From positions 1 to 64,000 of the IMG/VR virus record IMGVR_UViG_3300031787_000018: 64,000 nt of DNA, one strand, 5' to 3'. Positions 4,761 through 47,354 of this stretch are shown piece by piece. The stretch's first letter is position 1; each line of letters begins with the position of its first letter. The notes below the pieces were generated by a model. The model was given only the letters and a program-made list of their open reading frames with translations. It was not told the origin of the DNA and ran no database searches. Position numbers and translations under genes: made by a program. The DNA is from an uncultured virus (IMG/VR IMGVR_UViG_3300031787_000018). Taxonomy: Duplodnaviria > Heunggongvirae > Uroviricota > Caudoviricetes.

Positions 4761-5557
4761 TGGAAAAGAAAGATAAATTTTATGTGGTGTTAATGGCTAT
4801 TATGATATTGGTCATTTTATTTTTAAGTTGGCGTATCGGTAATTTAAAAGTTGGTAATTCTGATGGTATTGATGAACTTAGAAAAACCATAATACAAAAC
4901 GATTCACTAACTAAAATAAAAGAAGGTCAGTATACTAAATTAGTTGATTATTATAATTCAGAAAAAGAATTAAAAGAAGAACTTAAAAAATCTAATCGAG
5001 ATTTATATAACACATTAAAAAAACAAGATGAAAAAATATTAAGTTTAACTAAAGTTGTTATTTCATTAAAAGATACTGTTGTACAAGGTTTTGGTAAATT
5101 TAATCCCAATGACACAAATTTAATTGATTTAAATTTAAAATATCCAGTAAGTGATGAAAAACCTTTTATATTTTGGAATGGTTTTGTTAATAAAAAAACA
5201 GCCTTTTATAAGGGTAATTGGGAGTTTAATACCTTACCAATTCAAATTGTATTGACAGAAGAAAAAAGAGGTTTGTGGAAAACAAATGTTGTTGGACCAA
5301 AATGGTTTAAATTGGATTCCCTAACAATTAAAAGTTTACCACCAGAAGATTTCCCCCAAAAAATAGAAAGAAATATTCAGTTTTTATTAGGTGGAATGTA
5401 TAATTCAAATATTGTACCAATGGTACCTAGAGCTATTGGATTTGGTGGTGGTGTTAGTTTTAAGAATCAACATAATTTAATTATGAACGTAAATTCTGAC
5501 CAATCATTTAGTTTAGGTTATTATTATAAATTTAAAACATTCAAAAAGAATAAGTAG
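4760..5557 (+). CDS. hypothetical membrane-anchored protein
   Basis: N-terminal TM helix, coiled coil, beta-rich C-terminus. Confidence 0.7.
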   Translation: MEKKDKFYVVLMAIMILVILFLSWRIGNLKVGNSDGIDELRKTIIQNDSLTKIKEGQYTKLVDYYNSEKELKEELKKSNRDLYNTLKKQDEKILSLTKVVISLKDTVVQGFGKFNPNDTNLIDLNLKYPVSDEKPFIFWNGFVNKKTAFYKGNWEFNTLPIQIVLTEEKRGLWKTNVVGPKWFKLDSLTIKSLPPEDFPQKIERNIQFLLGGMYNSNIVPMVPRAIGFGGGVSFKNQHNLIMNVNSDQSFSLGYYYKFKTFKKNK

Positions 5558-15968: not shown

Positions 15969-16946
15969 ATGAATAAATATTACGAAATATTAGGCATTAA
16001 ACCCGGAGCCTCTAAAGAAGAAATTAAAAAGGCGTGGAAAAAGAAGAGTTTGGAGTATCATCCTGATAGAAACCCATCCGAAGATGCCACAACCAAGATA
16101 CAAGAAATAAATGAAGCCTATGAAATTTTAATAGGTAAAAAACAACCACCAAGAGAAGAAATACCTAATAAAGGTGGTTTTGGTGGTAACCCATTTAATA
16201 ATCCTTTTAATAACCCTTTTGCTGGGTTTAGAATGAAATCTAGACCCATTAGTATACTGGTTAATGTAACATTAGAAGATATTTTTCACGGTGTTAACAA
16301 AAATATAAAATTTAATGTTAATAAAACTTGTAAAACATGTCAGGGTAATGGTGGTAACACCACAACATGTACACATTGTAATGGAAGAGGTGGTAAAATA
16401 GAATACCACCAAGCTATGGGTATGCAAACAATGATAATGTGTAGTCATTGTGGTGGTTCTGGACAAATGAGGGTTGATACTTGTGGTACATGTCACGGTG
16501 CTGGCATTATAAACCATATAGAAAGTTTTGATTTAAAAATACCCAAAGGACTAACCGAAGGTGGTAGATTAATTATACAAGGTTTGGGGGCTGAAGGTCC
16601 TAACTTGGAAAGGGGCGACGTAGTTGTCAATTTTAATATACAACCCCACCCAAAATTCCAATTGGAAGGTTTAAATTTACATAAAACAGAAGAATTACCT
16701 TTTGTTGATATGATATTAGGTAAAGAAATTGAAATAGAAAGTTTTAGTGGTAAGTTTAAAGTTAATATACCTGAATATTGTGAAAGTAACAAAGTCATAA
16801 GATTAAAAGGCCAGGGTTTAATTGACGAGGATACAGGTATTACAGGAGACTTATATGTTAAATTAACACCAAAAGTACCAAAAAATATAACAGATAGAGA
16901 AAAAGAATTGTTACAAGAACTTAGGAGCTCAATCAATTTTTCGTGA
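15969..16946 (+). CDS. dnaJ: DnaJ chaperone
   Basis: J domain with HPD, G/F region, four CxxCxGxG repeats, C-terminal GDLYV. Confidence 0.95.
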   Translation: MNKYYEILGIKPGASKEEIKKAWKKKSLEYHPDRNPSEDATTKIQEINEAYEILIGKKQPPREEIPNKGGFGGNPFNNPFNNPFAGFRMKSRPISILVNVTLEDIFHGVNKNIKFNVNKTCKTCQGNGGNTTTCTHCNGRGGKIEYHQAMGMQTMIMCSHCGGSGQMRVDTCGTCHGAGIINHIESFDLKIPKGLTEGGRLIIQGLGAEGPNLERGDVVVNFNIQPHPKFQLEGLNLHKTEELPFVDMILGKEIEIESFSGKFKVNIPEYCESNKVIRLKGQGLIDEDTGITGDLYVKLTPKVPKNITDREKELLQELRSSINFS

Positions 16947-16958
16947 TATTTATAAAAT

Positions 16959-18098
16959 ATGAAAAAGAAAGAGTTACTTAAAGAAATCATGGGTGTACCC
17001 AAAGCTTTAAATTTTTGGGTTGATTATTTTAGTATTATATTAGCTGGTATGGCCAAATCAATTTCACAATCAGATGAGATGGAAGAAGCTGAAGTAACCT
17101 ATAAAAATCCAAATAACCCTGAAGAAATTGTTGAGGATTTAGCAAATCGTGGTTATAAAACCATGGATGGTAAAACAGTGATGGATTGGGTACAAAAAAT
17201 AGGTGGTTATTCAGACTTAGGGCAATTAATAAAAAATCCAACATATAAAGAATTTCCATTATACAAACCAACAATTGGTTTGATGGTAACATTTGTACCT
17301 GATGAATTATATGAAAGTGAAATTAGTGGTGATTATACAAAATCGATTCATGCCTATCATATTTGGGATCCAAATACAATAAAACTGTCTAAAATGGGTG
17401 GTGACAATTTTGTTTTTCTTGGACAAAGTTTTAATTTTGAAGTTATGGTACCATTTTCATGGATTGAGAATTTTGATACGGATCAGTTTAGAAAAATGTT
17501 AAAACCTGTTATTGGTCATGAGTTGACACATGCTTATGAAACATATAAAAGATTTCTTGGAACAGGTGATCCTCTAAAAGGTCGTGAAACTTTTTTAAAT
17601 GTCGCTTCTGAAACGGCTAAAAAATCCGATAACCCTTATTGGGGAAAATTTTTGTATTTGATATATCTATCATTATCCTATGAAATAAATGCCAGAATAG
17701 TAGAATTATATTCTTTTATTAAAAACAATGACATTAAAAACCAAGAGGAATTTATGAATGTTTTACAAAAAAGTTCTATATGGGATAAGATTAAAAAATT
17801 ACAATCTTTTAATGCTGAAAACTATATTAATAATTTTAGTGACGATGAAATTAAATCTTTAATAGATAATTGGGACCGAACATTACAGGATTTAAACATA
17901 GAAATGACAAATAAATTAGGTCACATATATAAGGGAAAATTAATGGACAAGGTACCACAATCGGCCAAAGAAAACCCAATTAAATTTTTTAAATTTTTTG
18001 AAAAAATATTCCATAAAAAAGGTGAAGATTTTAGAAGAAAGGCATTAAGATTATCTTCTTTATTAATAAATGGTGAACAAGAAAAAATAGTGAAATGA
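16959..18098 (+). CDS. hypothetical protein with zincin-like HExxH motif
   Basis: GHELTHAYE...YEINA. Confidence 0.6.
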   Translation: MKKKELLKEIMGVPKALNFWVDYFSIILAGMAKSISQSDEMEEAEVTYKNPNNPEEIVEDLANRGYKTMDGKTVMDWVQKIGGYSDLGQLIKNPTYKEFPLYKPTIGLMVTFVPDELYESEISGDYTKSIHAYHIWDPNTIKLSKMGGDNFVFLGQSFNFEVMVPFSWIENFDTDQFRKMLKPVIGHELTHAYETYKRFLGTGDPLKGRETFLNVASETAKKSDNPYWGKFLYLIYLSLSYEINARIVELYSFIKNNDIKNQEEFMNVLQKSSIWDKIKKLQSFNAENYINNFSDDEIKSLIDNWDRTLQDLNIEMTNKLGHIYKGKLMDKVPQSAKENPIKFFKFFEKIFHKKGEDFRRKALRLSSLLINGEQEKIVK

Positions 18099-18201
18099 TG
18101 GAAAATTATAAAATTAATAGTGATTTAATTTCACAAGAAGAGATGGCAAAAAGGTGGGAAGAAAAAATAATTGGGTTACTACCTAAATTAAAAAAAATAA
18201 T

Positions 18202-18244
18202 TTGACATTTAAATAAACTTTTGTATATTTGTATCATATTTATT
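18202..18244 (+). promoter_or_regulatory. promoter of tRNA cluster 1
   Basis: TTGACA 18202, TATATTTG 18224, then ATATTTAT; similar to the promoters at 28594 and 33336. Confidence 0.75.
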
Positions 18245-18274
18245 AAACACAAAAAATTATATAGTAAACTCACC

Positions 18275-18364
18275 ATGACAAAGGCGACAACATACATTGT
18301 TTTAACTCACAGAGAGGAGAGAGAACGTTATCTGACTAACAGTCGGAGTGGATGTCGTATATAG
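18275..18364 (+). CDS. attenuator leader peptide 1 (Glu/Arg sensor), MTKATTYIVLTHREERERYLTNSRSGCRI
   Basis: AGA GAG GAG AGA GAA CGT run, followed by a terminator and then tRNA-Glu and tRNA-Arg. Confidence 0.8.
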   Translation: MTKATTYIVLTHREERERYLTNSRSGCRI

Positions 18365-18388
18365 TCATGTCTCTATATATCAAGATAT

Positions 18389-18416
18389 AAACCCCGATTA
18401 AGAGTCGGGGTTTTTT
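18389..18416 (+). terminator. attenuator terminator 1
   Basis: AAACCCCGATT-AAG-AGTCGGGGTTT+T; competing AGTCGGAGT at 18341-18349. Confidence 0.85.
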
Positions 18417-18471
18417 ATTTTGGCCAATAAATAAAAAATTTATACTTTTGTAAAAGTTCTTTGATAAACAA

Positions 18472-18543
18472 GCTCCCGTCGTCTAAAGGCAAGGACACAT
18501 CTCTTTCACAGATGAAATACGGTTTCAAGATCCGTCGGGAGTA
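18472..18543 (+). tRNA. tRNA-Glu(TTC)
   Basis: acceptor GCTCCCG/CGGGAGT; anticodon arm CATCT-CTTTCAC-AGATG. Confidence 0.85.
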
Positions 18544-18548
18544 CAAAT

Positions 18549-18622
18549 GGTTCCGTAACTCAATAGGATAGAGTAACTACCTTCTAAGTAGTAAGTTACA
18601 GGTTCGATCCCTGTCGGAATCA
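18549..18622 (+). tRNA. tRNA-Arg(TCT)
   Basis: GGTTCCG/CGGAATC; ACTAC-CTTCTAA-GTAGT; GGTTCGATCC. Confidence 0.92.
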
Positions 18623-18711
18623 CAAAAAAAGTGATAAAAAATTTATAAAGCGTATTGACAGAAGAGGTTTTTATCACTAGTATTAACAAACAAAAACGAT
18701 ATAGTTCTTTA

Positions 18712-19035
18712 AAATACTGATACTTGAATATTTGAAGCGGTTGGAATGATTACATCAAACAACTATGATTCAGAAAAAGGACATTTTACCTAAGTATTGT
18801 CCAAGGTTTAATTAAAAGATGGGTATTAAGTTATCGTCCTGTTAAACTTAAAAAAACAATGGGAGTTTGTTAGCAACTCTAAAATCTAACAAGTTAGGAA
18901 GGGACTTTAAAACCCCCGAGTTTATTAGTGTCTGTAAAACCTAGTCAGGGTCACTCCTGGTCTTCCCCGAGATGGGGAACACGAAAAGTAACCATTATTC
19001 TGAAACATTCTCAGATATCAAGTTATCTAGTATTT
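18712..19035 (+). ncRNA. Y-RNA-like RNA 1 (about 320 nt, long terminal helix)
   Basis: paired ends (AAATACTGATACTTGA/TCAAGTTATCTAGTATTT, GGAATGA/TTATTCT); GAAGCGGT 18734 and TACATC 18751; upstream of the Ro60 gene. Confidence 0.65.
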
Positions 19036-19042
19036 AAAAATA

Positions 19043-19120
19043 TTCTATTGAAGCGGTGAAGAAAGTTACATCATTATTATTGAAAACGAAAAACACTTTC
19101 ATCTAAAATACTCAATAGGT
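19043..19120 (+). ncRNA. Y-RNA-like RNA 2 (minimal stem)
   Basis: CTATTGA/TCAATAG, GAAAGT/ACTTTC; GAAGCGGT 19050 and TACATC 19067. Confidence 0.65.
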
Positions 19121-19167
19121 ACTTTATTTGTCCACGTTAACTGTAAGAGTTAATTGTGAGACCTTAC

Positions 19168-19201
19168 AGTCCCTACGAGTAAAATTGTGGGGACTTTTTT
19201 T
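19168..19201 (+). terminator. terminator between the Y-like RNAs and Ro60
   Basis: AGTCCCTAC...GTGGGGACT followed by T-run. Confidence 0.7.
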
Positions 19202-19231
19202 ATTTTATTAAACAATATTAAATTTTAAGTT

Positions 19232-20842
19232 ATGACAAAGTTCAAATCAAAAGCAGTGGAAAATTTTGACGGTGGTATTTCTTATACCTTAAACCCATTG
19301 GATACATTACGTATCGTGGCAGCATCATCTATCTTTGGTGAACCATCTTATTACAGAGGTTCTCACGACAAACCATCTAACTTATCTACGTTAAAGACGT
19401 ATGACGTGTTAGGTTTGTACAAAGACCCAAGTGATACAACTACTGATGTTTTCACTAAGGCTATCGACGAGGCTTTAGACTATGACTTCAAGGCAACCCT
19501 TGAGTTAGCTAAGACTCTTCGTCACGAACACTTCATGAGGTTAAACCCAGCGGTTATCTTCATTAGAGCGTCTCAACACCCAAAGAGGGTTGAATTTAAC
19601 GAAGCAAACCCAGGTTTGATGAAACAATACGGTTTGGACATTGTTGGTCGTCCTGATGACATCACCAACCAATTTGATTACTACATGTTCTTAAACGGTT
19701 CTAAGAATGGTTTACCATCTATCGTTAAGAGGACATGGGCTGAGAAGTTGGCGTCTTTCACCAAGTACCAAATCAAGAAATATAAGTCAAAGTCATTAAT
19801 TGACTTGGTTCGTATTTCTCACGCACACTCTGAAGTTATCGATGAGTTAATGAAGACTGGTGACGTGGCTGTTTCTGAAACTGAAACAACTTGGGAATCA
19901 CTTAGGTCTCAAGGTAAGACTTGGAAGGAAATTCTTAACACAATTAAGGTTTCACACATGGCTTTACTTAGGAACTTAAGGGGTATTTTCACTGAGGTGA
20001 ATGATACTGAAGTGGCTAAGAAGGTTTTAACTGACCTTAAGGCAGGTGTTAAGTTTGGTAAGCAATTCCCATTCCGTTACTACACAGCTTACAAGGAAAT
20101 CGATAAGGTTTCTATAAACCACAAGGGTATGATACTTGACGCTTTACAAGAGTGTCTTGACATCTCTATCGAAAACTTCCCTAAGTTAAAGGGTAAGGTG
20201 GCTTGTTTATCAGATAACTCTGGTTCAGCTTGGGGTACAATGACCTCTGAGTATGGTACAACCCATATTGCTGAAATTGCTAACTTATCATCTATCATCA
20301 CAGCTTTATGTTCTGATGAAGGATATGTCGGTGTCTTTGGTGAAAGATTGAGTTTAAAACCTGTTTCTAAAAGAGACGGTATTATTACTCAGTTGGAAGA
20401 AACTTGTAAGAGAGGTAAGTCTCAAGGACAATCTTGTGAACACGGTATTTGGTTATTCTTACGTGAAGCAATCGACACTAAAACTCACTATGATACTATC
20501 TTTATTTATAGTGACATGCAGGCAGGACACGGTGGTCTTTACGGTACAAGTGTAAGCCGTGGTGACGTTCACTCTAGAGGTGGAAGTTATGTAGACGTAC
20601 TTAAAATGGTACAAGAATACCGTAAGAAGGTTAACCCAAAGGTTAACGTATTCACAGTCCAAGTGGCTGGATACAACAACTCTGTTGTACCTGAAAACCT
20701 TTACAGGGGTTCAGTACTTGGGGGTTGGACTGGTAAGGAAGCCTTATACGCTAGTGAGGTAATCAAGACTTGGGATGAAATTGAGTCTAACGACAAGGTT
20801 ACATCTGAGGTTGAAGTTACTGAACAAGTAGTACAATCTTAA
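19232..20842 (+). CDS. rsr: Ro60/Rsr TROVE-domain RNA-binding protein with vWA domain
   Basis: FGEPSYY, MALLRNLRGI, QFPFRYYTAY, MIDAS DNSGSA, IYSDMQ. Confidence 0.92.
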   Translation: MTKFKSKAVENFDGGISYTLNPLDTLRIVAASSIFGEPSYYRGSHDKPSNLSTLKTYDVLGLYKDPSDTTTDVFTKAIDEALDYDFKATLELAKTLRHEHFMRLNPAVIFIRASQHPKRVEFNEANPGLMKQYGLDIVGRPDDITNQFDYYMFLNGSKNGLPSIVKRTWAEKLASFTKYQIKKYKSKSLIDLVRISHAHSEVIDELMKTGDVAVSETETTWESLRSQGKTWKEILNTIKVSHMALLRNLRGIFTEVNDTEVAKKVLTDLKAGVKFGKQFPFRYYTAYKEIDKVSINHKGMILDALQECLDISIENFPKLKGKVACLSDNSGSAWGTMTSEYGTTHIAEIANLSSIITALCSDEGYVGVFGERLSLKPVSKRDGIITQLEETCKRGKSQGQSCEHGIWLFLREAIDTKTHYDTIFIYSDMQAGHGGLYGTSVSRGDVHSRGGSYVDVLKMVQEYRKKVNPKVNVFTVQVAGYNNSVVPENLYRGSVLGGWTGKEALYASEVIKTWDEIESNDKVTSEVEVTEQVVQS

Positions 20843-20847
20843 AAAAT

Positions 20848-21318
20848 ATGGGGGACTTAATGTCCCCCTATTTATTTTATAGTGATATTATATTATTATT
20901 ATATTCCGTGGTAAAGACGGAATATTTTTCATTTCTCAAGTACAACCGATTCAAATTTGGTAAACAGGAGGTTTCACAATTTGTAATTTTTGAGTTTAAG
21001 TGGTTGTTTTCAATAATAATTTTTTATTTTCATAAGTGTGATGATTCACAAGATAGGTTTCATACTCACGCTTTTAATGCCCTATCATTTAAACTATTTG
21101 GTCAATATGATGAACATATATTAGATGATGAATCTAATGGTTCCTATCATACAGAACGTAGAACACAAGTGGTAAAATATTTCCCTAGGGATTCTTATCA
21201 TCGTATAGCAAACAGTAATGGTTGTTGTACTTTGTTGTTATCAGGCCCATGGAAAAAACATTGGAAGGAGTATGTTGACGGTAATGTAATACATTATACT
21301 TGGGGTAGAAAGAAATAG
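20848..21318 (+). CDS. hypothetical cupin-like protein; start may be GTG 20908
   Basis: FHTHAF...YDEH...SYHRI...TLLLSGP. Confidence 0.55.
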   Translation: MGDLMSPYLFYSDIILLLYSVVKTEYFSFLKYNRFKFGKQEVSQFVIFEFKWLFSIIIFYFHKCDDSQDRFHTHAFNALSFKLFGQYDEHILDDESNGSYHTERRTQVVKYFPRDSYHRIANSNGCCTLLLSGPWKKHWKEYVDGNVIHYTWGRKK

Positions 21319-21371: not shown

Positions 21372-22055
21372 ATGGAAAAAGTAACATTAGAAATTCGAGC
21401 CGCTGAGGGTGGTGAAGATTCGAAACTCCTTGTGGAGGACATGGCTGCAGTCTATCTGAAAGCAGCCAAGAATAAAGGTTTTACCGTAGAGTCCGAACAT
21501 TGAAGAGACGGACTTGTTAGTATTTAGCTGACAGGTAAAGGGGTTAAGAAATACTTCCAAAACGAAGTTGGTTGTCATAGATGGCAAAGAATTCCACCCA
21601 CTGAAAAACGTGGTAGAGTACATACAAGTACAATTACAGTAGCTTTATTAGATTCCCAAAATTATCAGGAGATAGACATCAATATGGATGAATTACGTAT
21701 TGAAACAACTCGTGGTACAGGTAATGGTGGTCAACATAAGAACACAACAGATTCTTGTGTGGTTATAACCCATATACCAACAGGGATAAAAGTGGTTAGA
21801 GATGGTAGAAGTCAACATAAGAATAAGGACGAGGCTTTAAACGAAATAAAACAACGTCTAAATGATTTATACCAACAAAACCATATGGATAAAGTTTCTA
21901 AAGAAAGAAAGGGTCAAATCGGTAGTGGTAATAGGGGTTCTGAAAAGAAACGTACCTACAACCAAAAAATGGATTTGGTTATCGATCATGAAAGTGATAA
22001 GTCTACAAGTCTTAAACAATTCATGAAAGGTAAATTAGAACTATTAATGTGTTAA
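21372..22055 (+). CDS. class I peptide-chain release factor, minimal (PrfH-sized, no domain 1), RF1-type PxT motif, with in-frame TGA (21501) and TAG (21525)
   Basis: one frame from ATG 21372: LEIRAAEGGEDSKLLVEDM...H*RDGLVSI*L...EVGCHRWQRIPPTEKRGRVHTSTITVA...GTGNGGQHKN. Confidence 0.9.
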
Positions 22056-28593: not shown

Positions 28594-28640
28594 TTGACAA
28601 GTAATAAACTTTTACTATCTTTGTATCATATTTATTAACA
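28594..28640 (+). promoter_or_regulatory. promoter of tRNA cluster 2 (47-nt block identical to 33336-33382)
   Basis: TTGACAAGTAATAAACTTTTACTATCTTTGTATCATATTTATTAACA. Confidence 0.8.
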
Positions 28641-28657
28641 GTAACAGAATTAAACAA

Positions 28658-28750
28658 ATGAAGACTTTAACAAACATATTATTCGTGATGACACTAACGG
28701 TGTTATTTCAGTTTACACAAACTGAACTCGGGTTCTTATGTCTAAGTTAA
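28658..28750 (+). CDS. attenuator leader peptide 2 (Gln/Phe/Met/Thr/Val/Leu sensor), MKTLTNILFVMTLTVLFQFTQTELGFLCLS
   Basis: 15 consecutive codons from the downstream tRNA set; antiterminator CTCGGGTTCTT 28727-28737. Confidence 0.85.
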   Translation: MKTLTNILFVMTLTVLFQFTQTELGFLCLS

Positions 28751-28778
28751 TCATTTAATATATTAACAAATTTAGAAG

Positions 28779-28806
28779 AACCCGAGAAAAACTCTCGGGT
28801 TTTTTT
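28779..28806 (+). terminator. attenuator terminator 2
   Basis: AACCCGAGA-AAAAC-TCTCGGGTT followed by T-run. Confidence 0.88.
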
Positions 28807-28815
28807 ATTTTATAT

Positions 28816-28889
28816 TATCCCGTCGCCTAATTGGCATGGCACTAGATTTTGACTCTAGCATAGTACAGGTTCGAACCCTGTCGGGATAA
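28816..28889 (+). tRNA. tRNA-Gln(TTG)
   Basis: TATCCCG/CGGGATA; CTAGA-TTTTGAC-TCTAG. Confidence 0.9.
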
Positions 28890-28919
28890 CCGAAGAAGTT
28901 ATTTGACATATTATATTTT

Positions 28920-28992
28920 GTGGAAGTTACCAAGTTGGTCAAGGTGTTGGTCTGAAAAACCAATTATATGAGTTCGATTCTCATCTTCCACA
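28920..28992 (+). tRNA. tRNA-Phe(GAA)
   Basis: GTGGAAG/CTTCCAC; TTGGT-CTGAAAA-ACCAA. Confidence 0.9.
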
Positions 28993-29108
28993 CAACAAGC
29001 CGTAGGTATGAATAAGTATATATATATATATATAATATTATTTTAATAACTTATTTAATCATTAATTAAAATAATCATCTAAAGTTCGATAATTTTTATC
29101 GATATATA

Positions 29109-29957
29109 ATGATATTTATTACTATGAAATGGTATAAAAAAGATATTGAAACATTGATTGAATTAATTCGTCAAGGTAACACCTATGATGAAATAGGTGT
29201 TATAATGAAAAGAAGTAGATCTTCTATTAAAGCTAAATTATTAAAATTGGGTGAGACATATAGAAAGTATTCTGAAAACAATTATTATGAAAAGGTTAAT
29301 TGTAAAAATTGTGGTATAGAATTTAAATCTTTAATGTCTAATAAACAAAAATTTTGTAACCATACATGTGCTGCAAGTTATAATAATGTAATTAGAGGTA
29401 AAAGAAGTCAAGAAACAAAAAATAAAATAAGTAAATCATTAAAAAGTAAAAAAAAGGAGAAATATGATTTAAATCCTAAAAAATGTATGAAATGTGGTGA
29501 ACATATACCATATAGTAAATGGTGTAATTATAGAAAAAATTGTGACGAATGTAACATTATTATTCGTAAAAATATGGGTAGGATTTTAGGTCAAAAAACC
29601 TCACAAACCAAAATAAAAAGATCGAAAGACGAGATAAATTTATATGAGTTATGTAAGATGAGTTTTAACGATGTTGAACATAATAAAATAATAAGTTCTG
29701 GATGGGATGCTGATATTGTTATAAATGATTATAAAATACTTATACTATGGAATGGTCCTTGGCATTATAAACAGTTACCATTAAAAAACCATAGTTTAAA
29801 TCAAGTACAAACTAGAGATAAAATAAAACAAAAATTGTTTGAAAGTTTAGGTTGGAGAGTTATAATATTTGAAGATAGATATTACACACCATATACAGCT
29901 TTTGATTATTTAAAAAATATAATTCGGGATATATCTCCCCACTCTCATAAGGTGTAG
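29109..29957 (+). CDS. putative free-standing homing endonuclease (Zn-ribbon plus Vsr/DUF559-like nuclease)
   Basis: CxxC pairs; DADIVI...ILWNGPWHY...RDKIK...GWRVIIFED; lies inside a tRNA cluster. Confidence 0.7.
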   Translation: MIFITMKWYKKDIETLIELIRQGNTYDEIGVIMKRSRSSIKAKLLKLGETYRKYSENNYYEKVNCKNCGIEFKSLMSNKQKFCNHTCAASYNNVIRGKRSQETKNKISKSLKSKKKEKYDLNPKKCMKCGEHIPYSKWCNYRKNCDECNIIIRKNMGRILGQKTSQTKIKRSKDEINLYELCKMSFNDVEHNKIISSGWDADIVINDYKILILWNGPWHYKQLPLKNHSLNQVQTRDKIKQKLFESLGWRVIIFEDRYYTPYTAFDYLKNIIRDISPHSHKV

Positions 29958-30002
29958 AAAGAGTAATTGGCAACATGTGAGTTCAACTCTCACTATCCCG
30001 AC
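29924..30002 (+). tRNA. atypical tRNA-Met(CAT)-like element lacking a normal D-arm
   Basis: TCGGGAT/ATCCCGA acceptor; CACT-CTCATAA-GGTG; GTGAG-TTCAACT-CTCAC T-arm. Confidence 0.45.
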
Positions 30003-30047
30003 AAAATAATGGTTCGATCTGTTCAAATCAGATATACGGTACTATAT

Positions 30048-30121
30048 TCCGGTGATACTCTGAAGGTAAGGGTGCTCGCCTTGTAAGCGAGATTTAGTCG
30101 GTTCGATCCCGACCACCGGAT
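30048..30121 (+). tRNA. tRNA-Thr(TGT)
   Basis: TCCGGTG/CACCGGA; CTCGC-CTTGTAA-GCGAG. Confidence 0.85.
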
Positions 30122-30126
30122 CAAAA

Positions 30127-30197
30127 GCCCTGATGACGTAATGGTAGCGTACTAATTTTACATGTTAGCAGCAAAGGTTCAATTCCTTTTCAGGGCA
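30127..30197 (+). tRNA. tRNA-Val(TAC)
   Basis: GCCCTGA/TCAGGGC; CTAAT-TTTACAT-GTTAG. Confidence 0.85.
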
Positions 30198-30203
30198 CAA
30201 AAA

Positions 30204-30280
30204 GCCTTCGTGACGTAATTGGTAACCGTGTTAGTTTTAGAAACTAAATTTTGTGAGTTCAAATCTCACCGAAGGCACCA
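30204..30280 (+). tRNA. tRNA-Leu(TAG), short variable loop
   Basis: GCCTTCG/CGAAGGC-ACCA; TTAGT-TTTAGAA-ACTAA. Confidence 0.88.
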
Positions 30281-30328
30281 AAAATTTTGATAATAAATAA
30301 ACTTTTACTATATTTGTATCAACAAAAT

Positions 30329-30402
30329 GTTCCCATGGCGAAATTGGTAAACGCAACGAGTTTAAGCCTCGTATGTTCTCGGTTCAAATCCGGGTGGGAA
30401 TA
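30329..30402 (+). tRNA. tRNA-Leu(TAA), short variable loop
   Basis: GTTCCCA/TGGGAAT; ACGAG-TTTAAGC-CTCGT. Confidence 0.88.
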
Positions 30403-30405
30403 CAA

Positions 30406-30901: not shown

Positions 30902-31001
30902 AGTCAGGTGGCGTAATTGGTAACCGCTATAGGGTTGAGGCGTGCTAACTACCTATATAAATTGTTTTTAAACAATGCAGGTTCGAGTCCTGTCCTGACT
31001 A
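30902..31001 (+). ncRNA. tRNA-like RNA, AGTCAGG family copy 1
   Basis: AGTCAGG/CCTGACT acceptor, D-arm, GCAGGTTCGAGTCCTGT T-arm; extended non-canonical anticodon arm. Confidence 0.75.
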
Positions 31002-31016
31002 CAAAAATAAAGACAT

Positions 31017-31121
31017 ATGGAATATATATTAGGATTTTTAATTGGTATAAGTATTTTTATTATTTTTCATAAACCTATTATTAGAGCTTTAGAAAAATTA
31101 ATCGACATTATCCAAGAATAG
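31017..31121 (+). CDS. small membrane peptide (34 aa)
   Basis: MEYILGFLIGISIFIIFHKPIIRALEKLIDIIQE. Confidence 0.5.
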   Translation: MEYILGFLIGISIFIIFHKPIIRALEKLIDIIQE

Positions 31122-31220
31122 TCAGGTGGTGAAATTGGTAGCCACAGCATATAAGACCATGGGCGTTGTGTTGAAACCTACTGGGGATTAGATTTACAGG
31201 TTCGAGTCCTGTCCTGACTA
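31120..31220 (+). ncRNA. tRNA-like RNA, AGTCAGG family copy 2
   Basis: same acceptor and near-identical T-arm as copy 1; different interior. Confidence 0.75.
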
Positions 31221-31223
31221 CAC

Positions 31224-31440
31224 GAGTCGAGTTGTGTTCGACTAATGTGCTCCCGCATGATGGAAGTGGTGTCACACCCACAGGGACCTGAGCCGATTAC
31301 TTGAATCTAAGTCGGTTGGTTGGTGTACCAGTAACAGGAGGAAGTTAACACACAAGTCCTAACCCCTCACGTAAGTGGGTTGCCGCTGAAGCCTCGAGAA
31401 GCTATTCGGTATTGGGGACAGTCAGAAATGATTGGGCGAA
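31224..31440 (+). ncRNA. unidentified structured RNA
   Basis: GC-rich non-coding stretch; hairpins AGTCGA/TCGACT, GCCGATT/AGTCGGT, CTCAC-GTAA-GTGGG, CAGTCA-GAAA-TGATTG. Confidence 0.45.
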
Positions 31441-31446
31441 AATTAT

Positions 31447-31521
31447 AGTCAGGTGGTAGAATTGTGATTACACCTTGGGACGAATGTCTAGGAGATACAG
31501 GTTCGAATCCTGTCCTGACTA
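31447..31521 (+). ncRNA. tRNA-like RNA, AGTCAGG family copy 3
   Basis: same acceptor and near-identical T-arm; anticodon arm closed by a 4-nt GAAT loop. Confidence 0.75.
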
Positions 31522-33335: not shown

Positions 33336-33382
33336 TTGACAAGTAATAAACTTTTACTATCTTTGTATCATATTTATTAACA
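33336..33382 (+). promoter_or_regulatory. promoter of tRNA cluster 3 (identical to 28594-28640)
   Basis: exact 47-nt repeat containing TTGACA, TATCTTTG and ATATTTAT. Confidence 0.8.
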
Positions 33383-33400
33383 AACAAAACAATTAAAGAA

Positions 33401-33496
33401 ATGAAAAATTGGCATAACATATCGAGTATACATAGTAATCGAATTAATAGTTCGGTGTACACATGGTGTGTTTTGTCCAATCAAGATAATACTTAA
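33401..33496 (+). CDS. attenuator leader peptide 3 (Ser/His/Asn/Ile/Trp/Arg sensor), MKNWHNISSIHSNRINSSVYTWCVLSNQDNT
   Basis: 16 consecutive codons from the downstream tRNA set; antiterminator TGGTGTGTTTT 33464-33474. Confidence 0.87.
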   Translation: MKNWHNISSIHSNRINSSVYTWCVLSNQDNT

Positions 33497-33521
33497 TGGG
33501 AATTAAGTTTTTTGTACAAGG

Positions 33522-33556
33522 AAAACCCACCACATGAAAATGTCGGTGGGTTTTTT
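33522..33556 (+). terminator. attenuator terminator 3
   Basis: AAAACCCACC-ACAT-GAAA-ATGT-C-GGTGGGTTTT+TT. Confidence 0.85.
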
Positions 33557-33584
33557 GTTATTTGACATATTGGTAAATTAAAAT

Positions 33585-33673
33585 GGAGAGTTAAGCAGAT
33601 GCATTGGAGCGTCGACCAGCTTTGAAACCTGGGTCTCGTTAAGTCGGGTGGGGGTCGGGTCCTCAGCTCTCCG
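33585..33673 (+). tRNA. tRNA-Ser(TGA)
   Basis: GGAGAGT/GCTCTCC-G; loop TTTGAAA; long variable arm; atypical T-loop. Confidence 0.75.
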
Positions 33674-33679
33674 CAAAAT

Positions 33680-33768
33680 GGTGTTAGAGTCGGATATTGG
33701 TTAGCCGAGCTTGTCTGTGAAACAAGTGTTCTTTAGTGAACGTGCGGGTTCAATCCCCGTCTATCACC
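33680..33768 (+). tRNA. tRNA-His(GTG) with long variable arm
   Basis: G-1:C73; CTTGT-CTGTGAA-ACAAG. Confidence 0.85.
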
Positions 33769-33775
33769 CAAATAC

Positions 33776-33850
33776 GGGTCTGTAGTACTAATTGGATAAA
33801 ACTTTCGGCTGTTAACCGAGATGATGTGAGTTCGAGTCTCACTGGACCCG
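33776..33850 (+). tRNA. tRNA-Asn(GTT) 1
   Basis: GGGTCTG/TGGACCC; TTCGG-CTGTTAA-CCGAG. Confidence 0.85.
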
Positions 33851-33857
33851 CTGATTT

Positions 33858-33933
33858 GGACTGTAAGCTGACAAGGGGTAGCTGTGGCCTGTTAAGCCAA
33901 GGGTGGTGGGTTCGATTCCCACACAGTCCGCCA
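33858..33933 (+). tRNA. tRNA-Asn(GTT) 2
   Basis: GGACTGT/ACAGTCC-GCCA; TGGC-CTGTTAA-GCCA. Confidence 0.85.
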
Positions 33934-33936
33934 AAC

Positions 33937-34008
33937 GGGGGTATAGCTCAGTGGTAGAGCAGAGAGCTGTTAACTCTAAGGTCGTAGGTTCAATCCCTTC
34001 TACCCCCG
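33937..34008 (+). tRNA. tRNA-Asn(GTT) 3
   Basis: GGGGGTA/TACCCCC; canonical D-arm; AGAG-CTGTTAA-CTCT. Confidence 0.9.
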
Positions 34009-34015
34009 CAAATAT

Positions 34016-34088
34016 AGTATCGTGTCTGAACGGTTTAGGAACTATCCTGATAAGATAGGAAAAGTGGGTTCAACTCCCACCGATACTA
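34016..34088 (+). tRNA. tRNA-Ile(GAT)
   Basis: AGTATCG/CGATACT; CTATC-CTGATAA-GATAG. Confidence 0.88.
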
Positions 34089-34095
34089 CTAAAAT

Positions 34096-34169
34096 ACATC
34101 TGAGACCATATAGGAATTGGTACTGGCTTCCAAACCCAGTTGTTGCAGGTTCGAATCCTGTCAGATGTG
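34096..34169 (+). tRNA. tRNA-Trp(CCA)
   Basis: ACATCTG/CAGATGT-G; anticodon loop TTCCAAA. Confidence 0.85.
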
Positions 34170-34174
34170 CAAAA

Positions 34175-34264
34175 GGAAGATAGGTAAATATTGGTTTGTT
34201 ACAGCATCCTGCTAAGATGTCCCGGGTAATACCGGTGAGGGTTCAATTCCCTTGTCTTCCGCCA
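34175..34264 (+). tRNA. tRNA-Ser(GCT)
   Basis: GGAAGAT/GTCTTCC-GCCA; GCATC-CTGCTAA-GATGT; long variable arm. Confidence 0.9.
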
Positions 34265-34267
34265 AAT

Positions 34268-34355
34268 GGAGAGTTAAGGAAGGGAGTGGTTCCCTCGCTT
34301 GTTTGGAAAACAAGAACCCATTAAGTTGGGCACAGTTCGACTCTGTATCTCTCCG
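34268..34355 (+). tRNA. tRNA-Ser(GGA)
   Basis: GGAGAG/CTCTCC-G; CTTGT-TTGGAAA-ACAAG; long variable arm. Confidence 0.85.
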
Positions 34356-34365
34356 CTAATAACAT

Positions 34366-34437
34366 GGGCGTGTCATATAAGGGTTATTATGCGAAGCTTA
34401 TACCTTCGTCAAGGTGGCTCAACTCCACCCACGCCTA
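34366..34437 (+). tRNA. tRNA-Ile(TAT)
   Basis: GGGCGTG/CACGCCT-A; CGAAG-CTTATAC-CTTCG. Confidence 0.8.
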
Positions 34438-34442
34438 CAAAT

Positions 34443-34517
34443 GGTTCCATAGTGTAATTGGATAACACGCAAAGCTACGAACTTTGAGACTTGAGGGTTC
34501 AAATCCTTCTGGAACTA
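34443..34517 (+). tRNA. tRNA-Arg(ACG)
   Basis: GGTTCCA/TGGAACT; CAAAG-CTACGAA-CTTTG. Confidence 0.9.
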
Positions 34518-34522
34518 CTAAC

Positions 34523-36143: not shown

Positions 36144-36603
36144 TTATCTTAATGTTGACATCAATATTCTACCTGATTTAACAGAAGAAGAAAGGGTTAA
36201 ATTAGGTGGTAATAATATTGATTGGCAAACAAAACATTTTGAATGTGAAATGACCCATGTTTATATTGTTGAGGATACAGAAAATAAATTTAGACATTCA
36301 TTCTTAAAAAACAGAACACCTTATAAATTACAAATAAAAAGATTTGATTGGGAAGAGGTACCAAAAGAAGAAAGACCGTACCCAAATGCTGATGAAAATT
36401 CTTTTGAACACCTTCTAGGTTCTTTTAGGGAAATTAATGTAAGAGTTGAAGATTTAGATTATACAGGAACTTTTACTTTCTATACTTATATAAAACCAGA
36501 AGATGAGGGGATTGGTGATGTTAAAAAGTTAAAATGGGTTGAGTTTATTTGTGAAGTTGAAAATGGTAAAATAATTTCAATAAAGCGGTTGACAGATGAA
36601 TAA
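36130..36603 (+). CDS. hypothetical protein (MGMFD-start phage family)
   Basis: MGMFDYL...WQTK...YTGTFTFYT...WVEF. Confidence 0.65.
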   Translation: MGMFDYLNVDINILPDLTEEERVKLGGNNIDWQTKHFECEMTHVYIVEDTENKFRHSFLKNRTPYKLQIKRFDWEEVPKEERPYPNADENSFEHLLGSFREINVRVEDLDYTGTFTFYTYIKPEDEGIGDVKKLKWVEFICEVENGKIISIKRLTDE

Positions 36604-36822
36604 TAATCCTTATATTTGTATAAGAAATAAAAATACATAACATAAATTTAACATAAGCGTTGACAAATAAATAAAACTTTATTAATTTTGTCCATATTTA
36701 TTTATAGAAGTTGTGGTTCTGATGGGTTTCAGGAACCACCCCAAAAAAGACAGATACAGAACGGGGACTGTTTACAACGAAAACCCCACAAAAAAAACTA
36801 TAAACAAATTAAAACTAAAAAA

Positions 36823-36930
36823 ATGAGAAAGAATTACACATATCAACCGAGTACACCGAAAGCAGGGAAAGTAGCCGATAAAGGCTGTGATACCTTGAAT
36901 GGTTGTGGTATGTACAATTCTGTCTCATAA
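36823..36930 (+). CDS. attenuator leader peptide 4 (Tyr/Pro/Asp/Gly/Ala/Cys/Lys sensor), MRKNYTYQPSTPKAGKVADKGCDTLNGCGMYNSVS
   Basis: 11 of codons 12-23, plus Y5, Y7 and P9, match downstream tRNAs; antiterminator GGTTGTGG 36901-36908. Confidence 0.85.
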   Translation: MRKNYTYQPSTPKAGKVADKGCDTLNGCGMYNSVS

Positions 36931-36954
36931 GAATATATAGAGAAGAGTTTAAAT

Positions 36955-36991
36955 AACCCCCACAACCGATAAAAAAGTTGTGGGGGTTTTT
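36955..36991 (+). terminator. attenuator terminator 4
   Basis: AACCCCCACAAC-CGATAAAAAA-GTTGTGGGGGTT+TTT. Confidence 0.88.
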
Positions 36992-37005
36992 GTTTATAGT
37001 TATAC

Positions 37006-37087
37006 CCGTAAGTTGAACAGGTGGTGAGTTCCGTTGACTGTAGATCAACCGTTTTAAACTGTGGGGGTTCGATTCCCTCCTTACGGA
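37006..37087 (+). tRNA. tRNA-Tyr(GTA), C1:G72
   Basis: CCGTAAG/CTTACGG-A; GTTGA-CTGTAGA-TCAAC. Confidence 0.88.
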
Positions 37088-37107
37088 CAAAAACGTTCAT
37101 TGAAAAT

Positions 37108-37231
37108 AAAAAGAATAGAAGCGGTGGTATTGGTTACATCGATAATGGATATCAATTTGACAGCAAATCAAACGTTGTGGGTTCGAGTCCCATGATAAAA
37201 AACACCGATATTTTTATTCTCTGTTCTTTTT
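37108..37231 (+). ncRNA. Y-RNA-like RNA 3 with tRNA-like module
   Basis: AGAATAGA/TCTGTTCT and GTATTGGT/ACCGATAT stems; GAAGCGGT and TACATC motifs; D-, anticodon- and T-arm-like (GTGGGTTCGAGTCCCAT) hairpins inside. Confidence 0.75.
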
Positions 37232-37237
37232 AAATAT

Positions 37238-37316
37238 ATGGGGTTGGAGGAGTCAGGTTTTCCTCGCTTGGTTTGGGACCAAGAGACTTGCGTGGGTTCA
37301 AATCCCACACCCCATA
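37238..37316 (+). tRNA. tRNA-Pro(TGG)
   Basis: ATGGGGT/ACCCCAT; CTTGG-TTTGGGA-CCAAG. Confidence 0.88.
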
Positions 37317-37322
37317 CAAAAC

Positions 37323-37399
37323 GGATACGGCGCATAACGGCTGGTGTACCTGACTGTCTATCAGGTTTTAAGAGGGTTCGACTCCCTTCGTATCCGCCA
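37323..37399 (+). tRNA. tRNA-Asp(GTC)
   Basis: GGATACG/CGTATCC-GCCA; CCTGA-CTGTCTA-TCAGG. Confidence 0.88.
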
Positions 37400-37401
37400 A
37401 T

Positions 37402-37472
37402 GCGGGATTAGCATAAAGTTAATGTACTAGTCTTCCAAACTAGTGAAGTCGGATAGTTACCGGCATCCCGCT
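37402..37472 (+). tRNA. tRNA-Gly(TCC), atypical T-loop
   Basis: GCGGGAT/ATCCCGC-T; CTAGT-CTTCCAA-ACTAG. Confidence 0.82.
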
Positions 37473-37482
37473 CTAAAATTAT

Positions 37483-37557
37483 GGGCTACATCCCGAAGGC
37501 AGGGCACTTGATTTGCACTCAAGTGAAAACGGTAGGGTTCGATTCCCTCGTGGTCCA
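37483..37557 (+). tRNA. tRNA-Ala(TGC)
   Basis: G3:U70 in GGGCTAC/GTGGTCC; CTTGA-TTTGCAC-TCAAG. Confidence 0.85.
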
Positions 37558-37571
37558 CAAATATAATAAAA

Positions 37572-37662
37572 GGGTCTGTGGTGTGAGTGGTTTAAACCAC
37601 CTGTCTGCAAAACAGGGATGACAATTAATTTTGTTACGTCAGTTCGAATCTGACCAGACCCT
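37572..37662 (+). tRNA. tRNA-Cys(GCA) with long variable arm
   Basis: GGGTCTG/CAGACCC-T (U73); CCTGT-CTGCAAA-ACAGG. Confidence 0.85.
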
Positions 37663-37674
37663 CTAAAAAATAAA

Positions 37675-37749
37675 GACCTCGTAACTTAGTTGGTTTAAAG
37701 TGCTAATCTTTTAAATTAGAAATCGTGAGTTCGAATCTCACCGGGGTCA
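37675..37749 (+). tRNA. tRNA-Lys(TTT)
   Basis: GACCTCG/CGGGGTC; CTAAT-CTTTTAA-ATTAG. Confidence 0.9.
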
Positions 37750-37750
37750 C

Positions 37751-38203
37751 TTAACCACCATAACAATCAATACCTTTTATGGTTATTGTTGTATCGTTTT
37801 TAATTGTAATTTCTGTTTTTTCAGGGAAATATTCCTCATGGGTTAAATCATTACTACACTCAACCCTAGGATTGTCCAATTTTATAATAAGTTTATCATC
37901 TGATATCACACCTCTAATTGGTGTGTCTAACTTATAATAAACATTACCACCATCATAATCTTTATGTACTGTTCTTTCGTAAAATATTGAACCAAATATT
38001 GAATCTGAAAATACTGATTTTGTGTAATCTATAGTACAATAATAAGAAGTGTTACCACTCATAGTACTACGAATTTGACCTTCATATCTATAACTCGAAC
38101 TAAACAATCCACAAATCAAGGCAATTATAATCACCAAAAATACTAATCCACCGCCTCCACCACTAGGTGTTGATGGTACCCATACCCAAAAACCTTTTGA
38201 CAT
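37751..38203 (-). CDS. hypothetical membrane protein
   Basis: Gly run followed by a TM helix near the N-terminus. Confidence 0.65.
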   Translation of the reverse strand: MSKGFWVWVPSTPSGGGGGLVFLVIIIALICGLFSSSYRYEGQIRSTMSGNTSYYCTIDYTKSVFSDSIFGSIFYERTVHKDYDGGNVYYKLDTPIRGVISDDKLIIKLDNPRVECSNDLTHEEYFPEKTEITIKNDTTITIKGIDCYGG

Positions 38204-46930: not shown

Positions 46931-47321
46931 GGGGGTGACTTGGAATTGATTGGCTACATTAGTTATTGTAAAAGCATGTCGAGACTTGTTTGTAGGCTCG
47001 TTAAACCAACAATCAAAATTTTAAATGGCGACATTTTCGCAGACGCTACTGTAGGTCACTTTGTGACTGAAGGTGCAGAGGTTGTAGCCTAATTAGATTA
47101 GGGTACACAACGGGGTTGGATTACCTAGGAACAGAAGTCCAAAAAAGGGTGTTACCACTACCACAAAAGGGTAAAGTCAAACATGGAATGTGTCAACTAA
47201 GTCCATGGGAGAACTAAAAGATGAAGTTGTATATTTTGGGTGGTTAGAAAACCACATCCTAAACATGTAGAAGACTTTAATTCATTAGAACAAGACGGCG
47301 GTTCGACCCCGCTCACCTCCA
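46931..47321 (+). ncRNA. ssrA: tmRNA
   Basis: GGGGGTG/CACCTCC-A acceptor with G3:U; GCGGTTCGACCCCGC T-arm; tag ORF 47027-47092 after TTAAAT. Confidence 0.93.
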
Positions 47322-47354
47322 CTTTAGAAATTTATTAACCTAAAAATCGAAAAA

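Follow-up and report, generated by a model that had tools for sequence, protein, structure and literature searches.

A Glu/Arg leader ahead of phage tRNA genes as a probable leader-peptide attenuator, and its relatives in uncultured freshwater phages

How phages regulate their transfer RNA (tRNA) genes is largely unknown, and why they carry them is debated, the two views being compensation for codon usage and replacement of tRNAs lost to defence or host shut-off. Both questions are raised by a short open reading frame (ORF) that lies just ahead of a tRNA-Glu and a tRNA-Arg gene in an uncultured lake virus of the Caudoviricetes (IMG/VR record IMGVR_UViG_3300031787_000018). The stretch of DNA analysed here, which we call the window, comprises the first 64 kilobases (kb), positions 1–64,000, of this 132,425-base record (29.8% G+C; estimated completeness 67%); a 318-kb contig (L047) is the same phage, at 100% identity. 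Why should a 29-codon ORF containing a string of Glu and Arg codons stand directly before the tRNAs that read those codons? The element, termed module 1 below, is in our judgement probably a leader-peptide transcription attenuator that acts through the ribosome and has the tRNA itself as its regulated product. We favour this reading of the sequence and of folding models because the codon run is nearly unique in the genome, because the leaders of seven modules match their own tRNA arrays, and because nine homologues keep the run, a hairpin and a segment complementary to the terminator.

Module 1 lies on the plus strand and keeps the canonical order of promoter, short ORF, codon run, hairpin, antiterminator segment, terminator and regulated genes. 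The leader ORF opens with an ATG at 18275 and extends over 29 codons and a TAG stop (18275–18364, the stop at 18362–18364). Its regulatory run comprises the five codons AGA GAG GAG AGA GAA (Arg Glu Glu Arg Glu; 18311–18325), all of them read by the downstream tRNA-Glu(UUC) at 18472–18544 and tRNA-Arg(UCU) at 18549–18623 (both ARAGORN predictions, with Rfam tRNA scores of 48.8 and 65.9 bits respectively), which are the sole genes for these two tRNAs in the genome. An earlier note, made from the letters alone, had correctly placed codons 13–18 (AGA GAG GAG AGA GAA CGT) at 18311–18328 and named the two tRNAs; the sensing run of six codons that it proposed shortens to the five just given. Such strings are rare: at least five consecutive Glu (GAR) or Arg (AGR) codons occur twice among the 264,846 codon positions that the six frames of the 132-kb genome offer, one of the two being this leader, and only 0.00018 would be expected in a 28-codon ORF.

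Behind the run, alternative structures are predicted for the RNA. The region 18230–18420 has a folding z-score of −3.88, and none of 200 shuffles folded equally well. Hairpin 1:2 joins segment 1 (18331–18337) to 18341–18347 in 7 base pairs around a loop of 3 nucleotides (nt; −6.2 kcal/mol). Segment 2 (18341–18349) resembles the 3′ arm of an intrinsic terminator with T tract (18389–18416; stem 18389–18399/18403–18413, 11 pairs of which 5 are G-C, loop 18400–18402, −14.3 kcal/mol) and can pair with 18391–18399 in a core duplex of −7.1 kcal/mol. Both pairings had been spotted in the earlier note and are borne out here. The classical 1:2, 2:3 and 3:4 switch that it built on them holds as far as alternative structures exist, and needs amending in two respects. 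First, the antiterminator is not confined to this 9-nt pairing; the extended form predicted with a ribosome on the codon run spans 18341–18399 (18342–18346/18394–18398 and 18348–18349/18391–18392 plus inner helices; −18.7 kcal/mol) and takes up the terminator 5′ arm. Second, its main competitor in the folding model is a long-range helix (18258–18289/18353–18379), hairpin 1:2 by itself being insufficient. The 5′ strands of this helix (18258–18264, 18274–18279, which includes the start codon, and 18284–18289) pair, in that order, with 18373–18379, 18364–18369 and 18353–18358, and these 3′ strands double as the inner part of the antiterminator. Long-range helix and hairpin 1:2 together make up a closed, terminator-permissive state, the minimum-energy fold of the ribosome-free RNA (−30.8 kcal/mol).

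The promoter ahead of this leader points to a host group. Promoter P1 has its −33 element at 18202–18204 (hexamer 18202–18207) and, after a 19-nt spacer, a −7 box at 18224–18231; it scores 11/12 in a sigma-70 scan and fits TTG-N19-TAnnTTTG. Its extended motif has five copies in the genome, every one ahead of a tRNA unit. From the −7 box geometry given in passages of PMC6847099, transcription is predicted to start near 18236, which leaves a 39-nt untranslated leader (18236–18274) with an A at −3 and no Shine-Dalgarno sequence, and which makes the ATG at 18275 the first start codon of the transcript. Across the phage, TTG-N19-TAnnTTTG occurs 19 times on the plus strand and five times on the minus strand, as against none and three for the same pattern read backwards. 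Shine-Dalgarno sequences are found in three of the phage's 105 long ORFs, compared with eight in a control window, and an A-rich stretch precedes start codons. TAnnTTTG-type promoters and scarcity of Shine-Dalgarno sequences are both described for Bacteroidetes in those same passages (PMC6847099), from which we infer a Bacteroidota host, the two traits being coherent with one another. In the same phylum, a transcriptome study of Flavobacterium psychrophilum reports strong signs that leader-peptide attenuation operates ahead of operons for amino acids (excerpt of PMC9723704).

Module 1 is not alone, as four tRNA clusters in the window are preceded by the same type of module, with a near-identical promoter, an ORF of 30–35 codons (29 in module 1), an antiterminator and terminator, and then the tRNAs, again on the plus strand. 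We matched codons to tRNAs under strict wobble rules, with four extra tRNAs taken from a relaxed ARAGORN search. In module 2 (28594–28806; ORF 28658–28750, antiterminator segment 28726–28738, terminator 28778–28806), 18 of 29 codons are cognate to the array, with a longest run of 10, and the duplex between leader and terminator arm (−19.6 kcal/mol) was equalled by none of 300 shuffles; its array comprises tRNA-Gln and tRNA-Phe (28816–28993), then a 282-codon ORF, then Thr, Val, Leu and Leu (30048–30403). Module 3 (33336–33556; ORF 33401–33496, terminator 33523–33556) has 20 of 30 codons cognate and a longest run of 16, ahead of 11 tRNAs at 33590–34518 (Ser, His, three Asn, Ile, Trp, Ser, Ser, Ile and Arg(ACG)). 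Module 4 (36660–36991), with a long 5′ leader before its ORF (36823–36930) and terminator (36955–36991), has 15 of 34 codons cognate and a longest run of 5, and precedes tRNAs for Tyr, Pro, Asp, Gly, Ala, Cys and Lys (37006–37750). The match extends to the choice of codon within an amino acid: the Arg codons of the module 1 run are AGA and its array carries Arg(UCU), while the array of module 3 carries Arg(ACG) and its leader contains the rare CGA, which accounts for 26 of the 762 Arg codons of long ORFs.

Is this matching more than could be found by picking favourable pairs? We set seven independent modules, the four of the window and three from other uncultured phages (L044, L067, L100), against their seven arrays in a 7 × 7 matrix. 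The true pairing of leaders with arrays came top in cognate fraction, in enrichment and in longest run, and a single one of the 5040 permutations, the identity, attained the top sum; runs for the own array measured 5–16 codons, those for foreign arrays 0–4. A blind sweep was then applied to all fetched loci, including those from a scan of viral contigs with a 15-base promoter word, most of which were unrelated AT-rich matches. It returned 27 distinct cases in which a terminator precedes the first tRNA of a cluster by at most 90 nt. In 16 of these a short ORF carried a run of at least five codons for its own array, compared with 200 shufflings of the pairings that averaged 2.98 such cases and never exceeded 7. 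Some of the 11 misses are loci that end shortly past the first tRNA. The most striking leaders belong to more distant relatives: in L298 (about 2700–2944) a run of 11 Cys, Lys, Gln, His, Glu, Arg and Phe codons stands before an array of exactly those tRNAs, and in L289 (about 5000–5210) a leader of Leu, Phe, Val and Pro codons stands before tRNAs for Leu, Pro, Val and Phe.

The sister arrays have further features of their own. The 282-codon ORF of array 2 (29109–29957, between tRNA-Phe and tRNA-Thr) has only a weak sub-threshold match to a RAP domain. Codons for Thr, Val and Leu, which match the tRNAs beyond this ORF, abound in leader 2, and this suggests insertion of the ORF into a formerly contiguous array. 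In the same array a fifth copy of the tRNA promoter (30287–30328) lies directly before tRNA-Leu(UAA), with neither leader ORF nor terminator, and thus forms an unattenuated unit. Three different consecutive tRNA genes of array 3 (33776–34009) share the Asn anticodon GUU, and leader 3 holds seven Asn codons. Upstream of module 4 lies another promoter of the same type (36589–36618), and a structured leader of some 160 nt precedes the ORF of this module.

Transcripts of these units were sought among freshwater metatranscriptomes, six runs of which contain parts of the region. Four were used; the data are assembled contigs, from which neither RNA ends nor levels can be read. RNA contigs bridge leader, terminator and tRNAs in module 2 (28611–30053, run X1), module 3 (33353–34476, runs X1 and X2) and module 4 (36641–37900, runs X2 and X3). 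The contig breaks at 33353 and 28611 were rejected as RNA ends, as they coincide with repeated promoter sequence and are assembly effects. The contigs of two runs that start at 36641 carry adapter sequence, a hint of a defined RNA end at this position.

We scanned 134 loci around relatives of the TROVE gene that lies downstream of module 1 (54 from viral contigs, 80 from metagenome contigs). Ten of them, with nine distinct sequences and all from uncultured phages, contain a homologous leader, and in all ten it is followed by tRNA-Glu and tRNA-Arg (UCU, often also CCU); L048 and L061, relatives without the tRNAs, are also without the leader. Every homologue keeps a Glu/Arg run of 4–7 codons. 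The leader ORF is kept in all nine members, at 23 codons in the eight distinct relatives as against 29 in module 1. Outside the run the peptides of the two subfamilies have little in common, whereas the RNA stems are retained: each of the nine folded members has a hairpin directly behind the codon run, the loop of which changes freely and non-synonymously. (Alignment A1 shows the hairpins of one subfamily shifted against those of the other, and per-sequence structure predictions were therefore used in place of column-wise pair counts.)

The terminators of the relatives fall into three stem types, and each leader has, close ahead of its stop codon, a segment that complements the 5′ arm of its own terminator. 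This duplex is strongest in L054 (−14.5 kcal/mol, equalled by 1 of 300 and 0 of 200 shuffles), L059 (−13.8 kcal/mol; 1 of 300 and 2 of 200) and L056 (−12.5 kcal/mol; 3 of 200), and weaker in L229, L232 and L267 (−6.7 to −7.8 kcal/mol; 9–21 of 200). L054 and L056 also have an extra ORF, different from that of array 2, inserted between terminator and tRNAs. In L229, L232, L243 and L267 the gap between terminator and tRNA-Glu measures a mere 1–10 nt, so that tRNA-Glu should be reachable only by read-through.

We then modelled the switch itself, folding a transcript that ends before the terminator 3′ arm, with a 28-nt unpaired mask standing for the ribosome, and reading out the probability that the terminator 5′ arm is paired upstream; all the figures are thus equilibrium predictions on truncated RNAs. 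For module 1 this probability was 0.04 without a ribosome, rose to 0.70–0.77 with the A site on codons 2–19 (apart from a dip to 0.34 at codon 15), and fell to 0.02–0.09 with the A site on codons 21–30. The family behaves alike: in all nine members the probability with a ribosome on the codon run (0.41–0.98) exceeds the minimum over the last codons (0.00–0.22). In 11 of 14 modules, moreover, segment 2 ends 3–19 nt before the stop codon.

Taken together, these elements would form the following circuit. Transcription would begin at the Bacteroidota-type promoter (18202–18231), and a ribosome would load on the leader ORF while polymerase proceeds. With charged Glu-tRNA and AGA/AGG-reading Arg-tRNA in plentiful supply, it would pass codons 13–17 and reach the end of the ORF, where it would cover segment 2 and its neighbours; the terminator could then form, and the transcript would stop ahead of the tRNA genes. 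When these tRNAs are scarce, the ribosome would stall on the run, keep the 5′ part of the leader off 18353–18379 and partly melt hairpin 1:2, so that the antiterminator (18341–18399) could use the terminator 5′ arm and polymerase would continue into tRNA-Glu and tRNA-Arg(UCU). Without any translation, the long-range helix and hairpin 1:2 would form and transcription would terminate. Such a circuit would amount to direct feedback on decoding capacity, slow reading of a set of codons leading to synthesis of the matching tRNAs.

A number of observations weigh against this reading of module 1, some of which concern the codon run. Of the 28 codons in the ORF as a whole, just 5 are cognate, an enrichment that by itself is not significant (binomial P 0.14), and the other two frames of the same purine repeat give Glu/Arg codons almost equally (5 of 29 and 4 of 29). 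Codon 18, the CGT at the end of the six-codon run of the earlier note, is not decoded by the UCU anticodon. Others concern the switch. Shuffled leaders reached the −9.1 kcal/mol of the top antiterminator duplex of module 1 in 25 of 300 cases in one test and in 19 of 200 in another, and its core duplex does not surpass 6–10% of shuffles. The full-length RNA at equilibrium prefers the terminator at every ribosome position (probability 0.89–0.95); the decision must therefore be kinetic, set by the order of folding. When codon 15 occupies the A site, 0.2 kcal/mol separates the closed from the antiterminated state. The earlier note had a ribosome stalled on the run mask segment 1 and so free the antiterminator; in the model a ribosome on the run does favour the antiterminator, but with codon 13 or 14 in the A site it falls short of segment 1. 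Further, the ribosome-free state is predicted to be antiterminated (0.56–0.70) in four of the nine family members, and the prediction shifts with the assumed 5′ end, as in L054, where it is 0.07 with a 30-nt leader versus 0.70 with a 39-nt one.

Other reservations concern function. While anatomy, codon–tRNA match, conservation and possible alternative pairings come from sequence and computation, we infer translation of the ORF, stalling, folding order, read-through and the biological trigger. A candidate second promoter P2, recognized by its motif (TTTG at 18419–18422, a 20-nt spacer and a −7-like box at 18443–18450), may provide attenuator-independent basal expression of both tRNAs. RNA contig depth over 18000–18663 is only 0, 1.8, 2.9 and 0 in the four runs, which decides nothing for module 1. 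Finally, the design cannot separate a shortage of tRNA from a shortage of the amino acid.

Three other explanations have to be set beside the attenuator. The first takes P2 as its starting point: promoter, ORF and terminator could form a separate unit for a small RNA or micropeptide, with the tRNAs transcribed from their own promoter past the terminator and the codon match either lacking a regulatory role or contributing no more than a small inducible share. The TTTG-N20-TAnnTTTG-like motif at 18419–18450, between terminator and tRNA-Glu, would serve as that promoter, and a similar one occurs in the same spacer of L059; the very stable closed fold (z −3.88) is like that of stable small RNAs; and RNA contig depth is low across leader and tRNAs. 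Nonetheless, there is little or no room for a promoter in the four homologues with a 1–10 nt gap, nor in modules 2, 3 and 4, where the gap is about 10–35 nt (smallest in 2 and 4). Moreover, what is conserved across the subfamilies is the Glu/Arg run and the RNA stems, not the peptide; the leader occurs only alongside the tRNAs; and an unrelated small gene could not account for codon matching across modules. We consider a separate unit improbable.

Could the switch instead respond to translation without regard to codons? On this second explanation it would report general ribosome availability or the coupling of transcription to translation, with the run incidental or tuning speed. The folding model lends it some credit, as it favours the antiterminator for any ribosome on codons 2–19 and as the main competitor of the antiterminator includes the start-codon region. 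However, the leaders within one genome differ, each being written in the codons of its own array, which a general sensor would not need, and the run is conserved in nine of nine family members; a switch blind to codons thus seems decidedly unlikely. The third explanation, a T-box-like device in which the run would pair with the anticodons of uncharged tRNAs and so stabilize the antiterminator without a ribosome, shares the logic of a tRNA-related signal and a terminator/antiterminator choice, with codon triplets exposed near the switch, but is scarcely credible given that no T-box match appears at E up to 10 in 18100–19300, that the triplets lie in frame between ATG and stop in every module, and that leaders with as many as 16 cognate codons in a row, and with codons for as many as six amino acids, suit decoding by a ribosome rather than a single specifier.

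How does the proposed attenuator compare with those already known? Leader-peptide attenuators precede the enterobacterial trp, his, leu, thr, ilv and pheA operons, and the thr and ilv leaders among them are multivalent. Module 1 has their promoter-proximal short ORF with regulatory codons, their 1:2, 2:3 and 3:4 pairings as predicted alternatives and their terminator before the regulated genes, and its stop codon is placed so that a terminating ribosome would cover segment 2 (for the pheL attenuation model, see the part of PMC3082878 that sets it out). It differs from the attenuators of amino-acid operons in that the phage modules would regulate tRNA genes rather than enzymes, so that the sensed molecule and the product are of one class; in being encoded by a phage, with leaders multivalent for up to six or more amino acids; and in its Bacteroidota-type promoter, its lack of a Shine-Dalgarno sequence and the extra long-range helix enclosing the leader. 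In all described attenuators the regulated genes serve amino-acid biosynthesis or charging. Here, by contrast, they are tRNA-Glu and tRNA-Arg, which sets the module apart from ordinary leader-peptide attenuators.

Two further systems bear comparison. In the E. coli pheST leader, the charging of a single tRNA is sensed through a leader peptide, which controls a synthetase gene; module 1 resembles it in having a leader peptide control a gene of the decoding apparatus, while the pheST product is a charging enzyme, its specificity single and its setting cellular. T-boxes (RF00230) likewise sense tRNA charging and decide whether a terminator or an antiterminator forms, the genes behind them serving to charge tRNAs or to supply amino acids, but a T-box binds the tRNA directly, through a specifier codon and the T-box sequence and without a ribosome, whereas the phage leader has an ORF with start and stop. 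At gathering thresholds no Rfam family matches 18200–18470. The best sub-threshold scores (E up to 10) are those of Trp_leader (RF00513; 27.2 bits versus a gathering threshold of 41, mostly on the terminator) and PyrR (26.6 versus 54), and, as these lie below the gathering thresholds, a known Rfam RNA family was rejected as an explanation of the region. Full-text searches of a collection with few subscription journals returned no paper that describes leader-peptide attenuation of tRNA genes, and an older description may exist.

Present at four tRNA arrays of this phage and again in many uncultured phages of fresh water that are related to it, the element would represent a family-wide strategy. 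We tentatively propose that the tRNA arrays of these phages are demand-driven. Each would be gated by a multivalent leader composed of exactly the codons that its own tRNAs decode, and this leader would measure decodability per codon family and allow replacement tRNAs to be made only when required; the trigger would be loss of host tRNAs during infection, making the leaders sensors of tRNA-targeting immunity. For this broader proposal as a whole, belief and doubt are close to balance, with doubt slightly ahead. Should it hold, the triggers could be host shut-off, a poor fit between the AT-rich codon usage of the phage and the tRNAs present in the host, or defence nucleases that cleave tRNAs. 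If the attenuator reading itself is right, the phage would read decoding speed directly and respond with the matching tRNAs; attenuation, the oldest known RNA-based control, would extend to a new class of product and provide a simple sensor for tRNA depletion. The element makes the regulation and purpose of phage tRNAs directly testable, and the modules, at some 200 nt and with exchangeable codon strings under the same promoter and terminator logic, are attractive as codon-specific reporters of translation stress.

No close relative in culture that could act as a test system emerged among GenBank phages. There, blastn with 4 kb gave matches confined to tRNAs, covering 2% of the query each, and the top tblastn match of the TROVE protein was Bacillus phage G, at 52% identity. 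Pfam assigns no function to the ORF of 379 amino acids upstream of module 1, and a search for related loci with its protein returned two. Translation-related genes are abundant nearby, including those for DnaJ, an RF-1 domain protein, the TROVE/Ro-like protein and a transfer-messenger RNA (tmRNA).

Between the tRNAs of module 1 and the TROVE/Ro-like gene (19232–20842) lie two tandem non-coding units (18655–19205) with their own conserved promoter (18655) and terminator (19168–19195). Each opens with a shared 8-nt motif (near 18735 and 19050), and a third copy, with a tRNA-like T arm, lies inside array 4 (37090–37237). The units are conserved in L048 and L061, the relatives that do not have the Glu/Arg module, and RNA contigs over 18740–20848 reach depths of 196 and 128, starting with adapter sequence at 18740. 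No Rfam family matches them; they are candidates for phage Y-RNA-like partners of the Ro protein.

Elsewhere in the window, three tRNA-like genes (30902–31001, 31120–31221 and 31447–31521) have their 5′ and 3′ ends in common, but their middles differ or are interrupted; structured RNA lies between the genes. In all four metatranscriptome runs, contigs pass directly from 30922 to 31497 and leave out 574 nt (depths 415, 150, 99 and 152), which may be an assembly jump caused by the repeats or a genuine joined form of the RNA. The tmRNA is encoded at 46931–47324 (Rfam RF00023, 82 bits, full length), the RF-1 domain protein at 21684–22055 and the DnaJ homologue at 15969–16946, which together give this tRNA-rich phage a translation-rescue and chaperone cluster.

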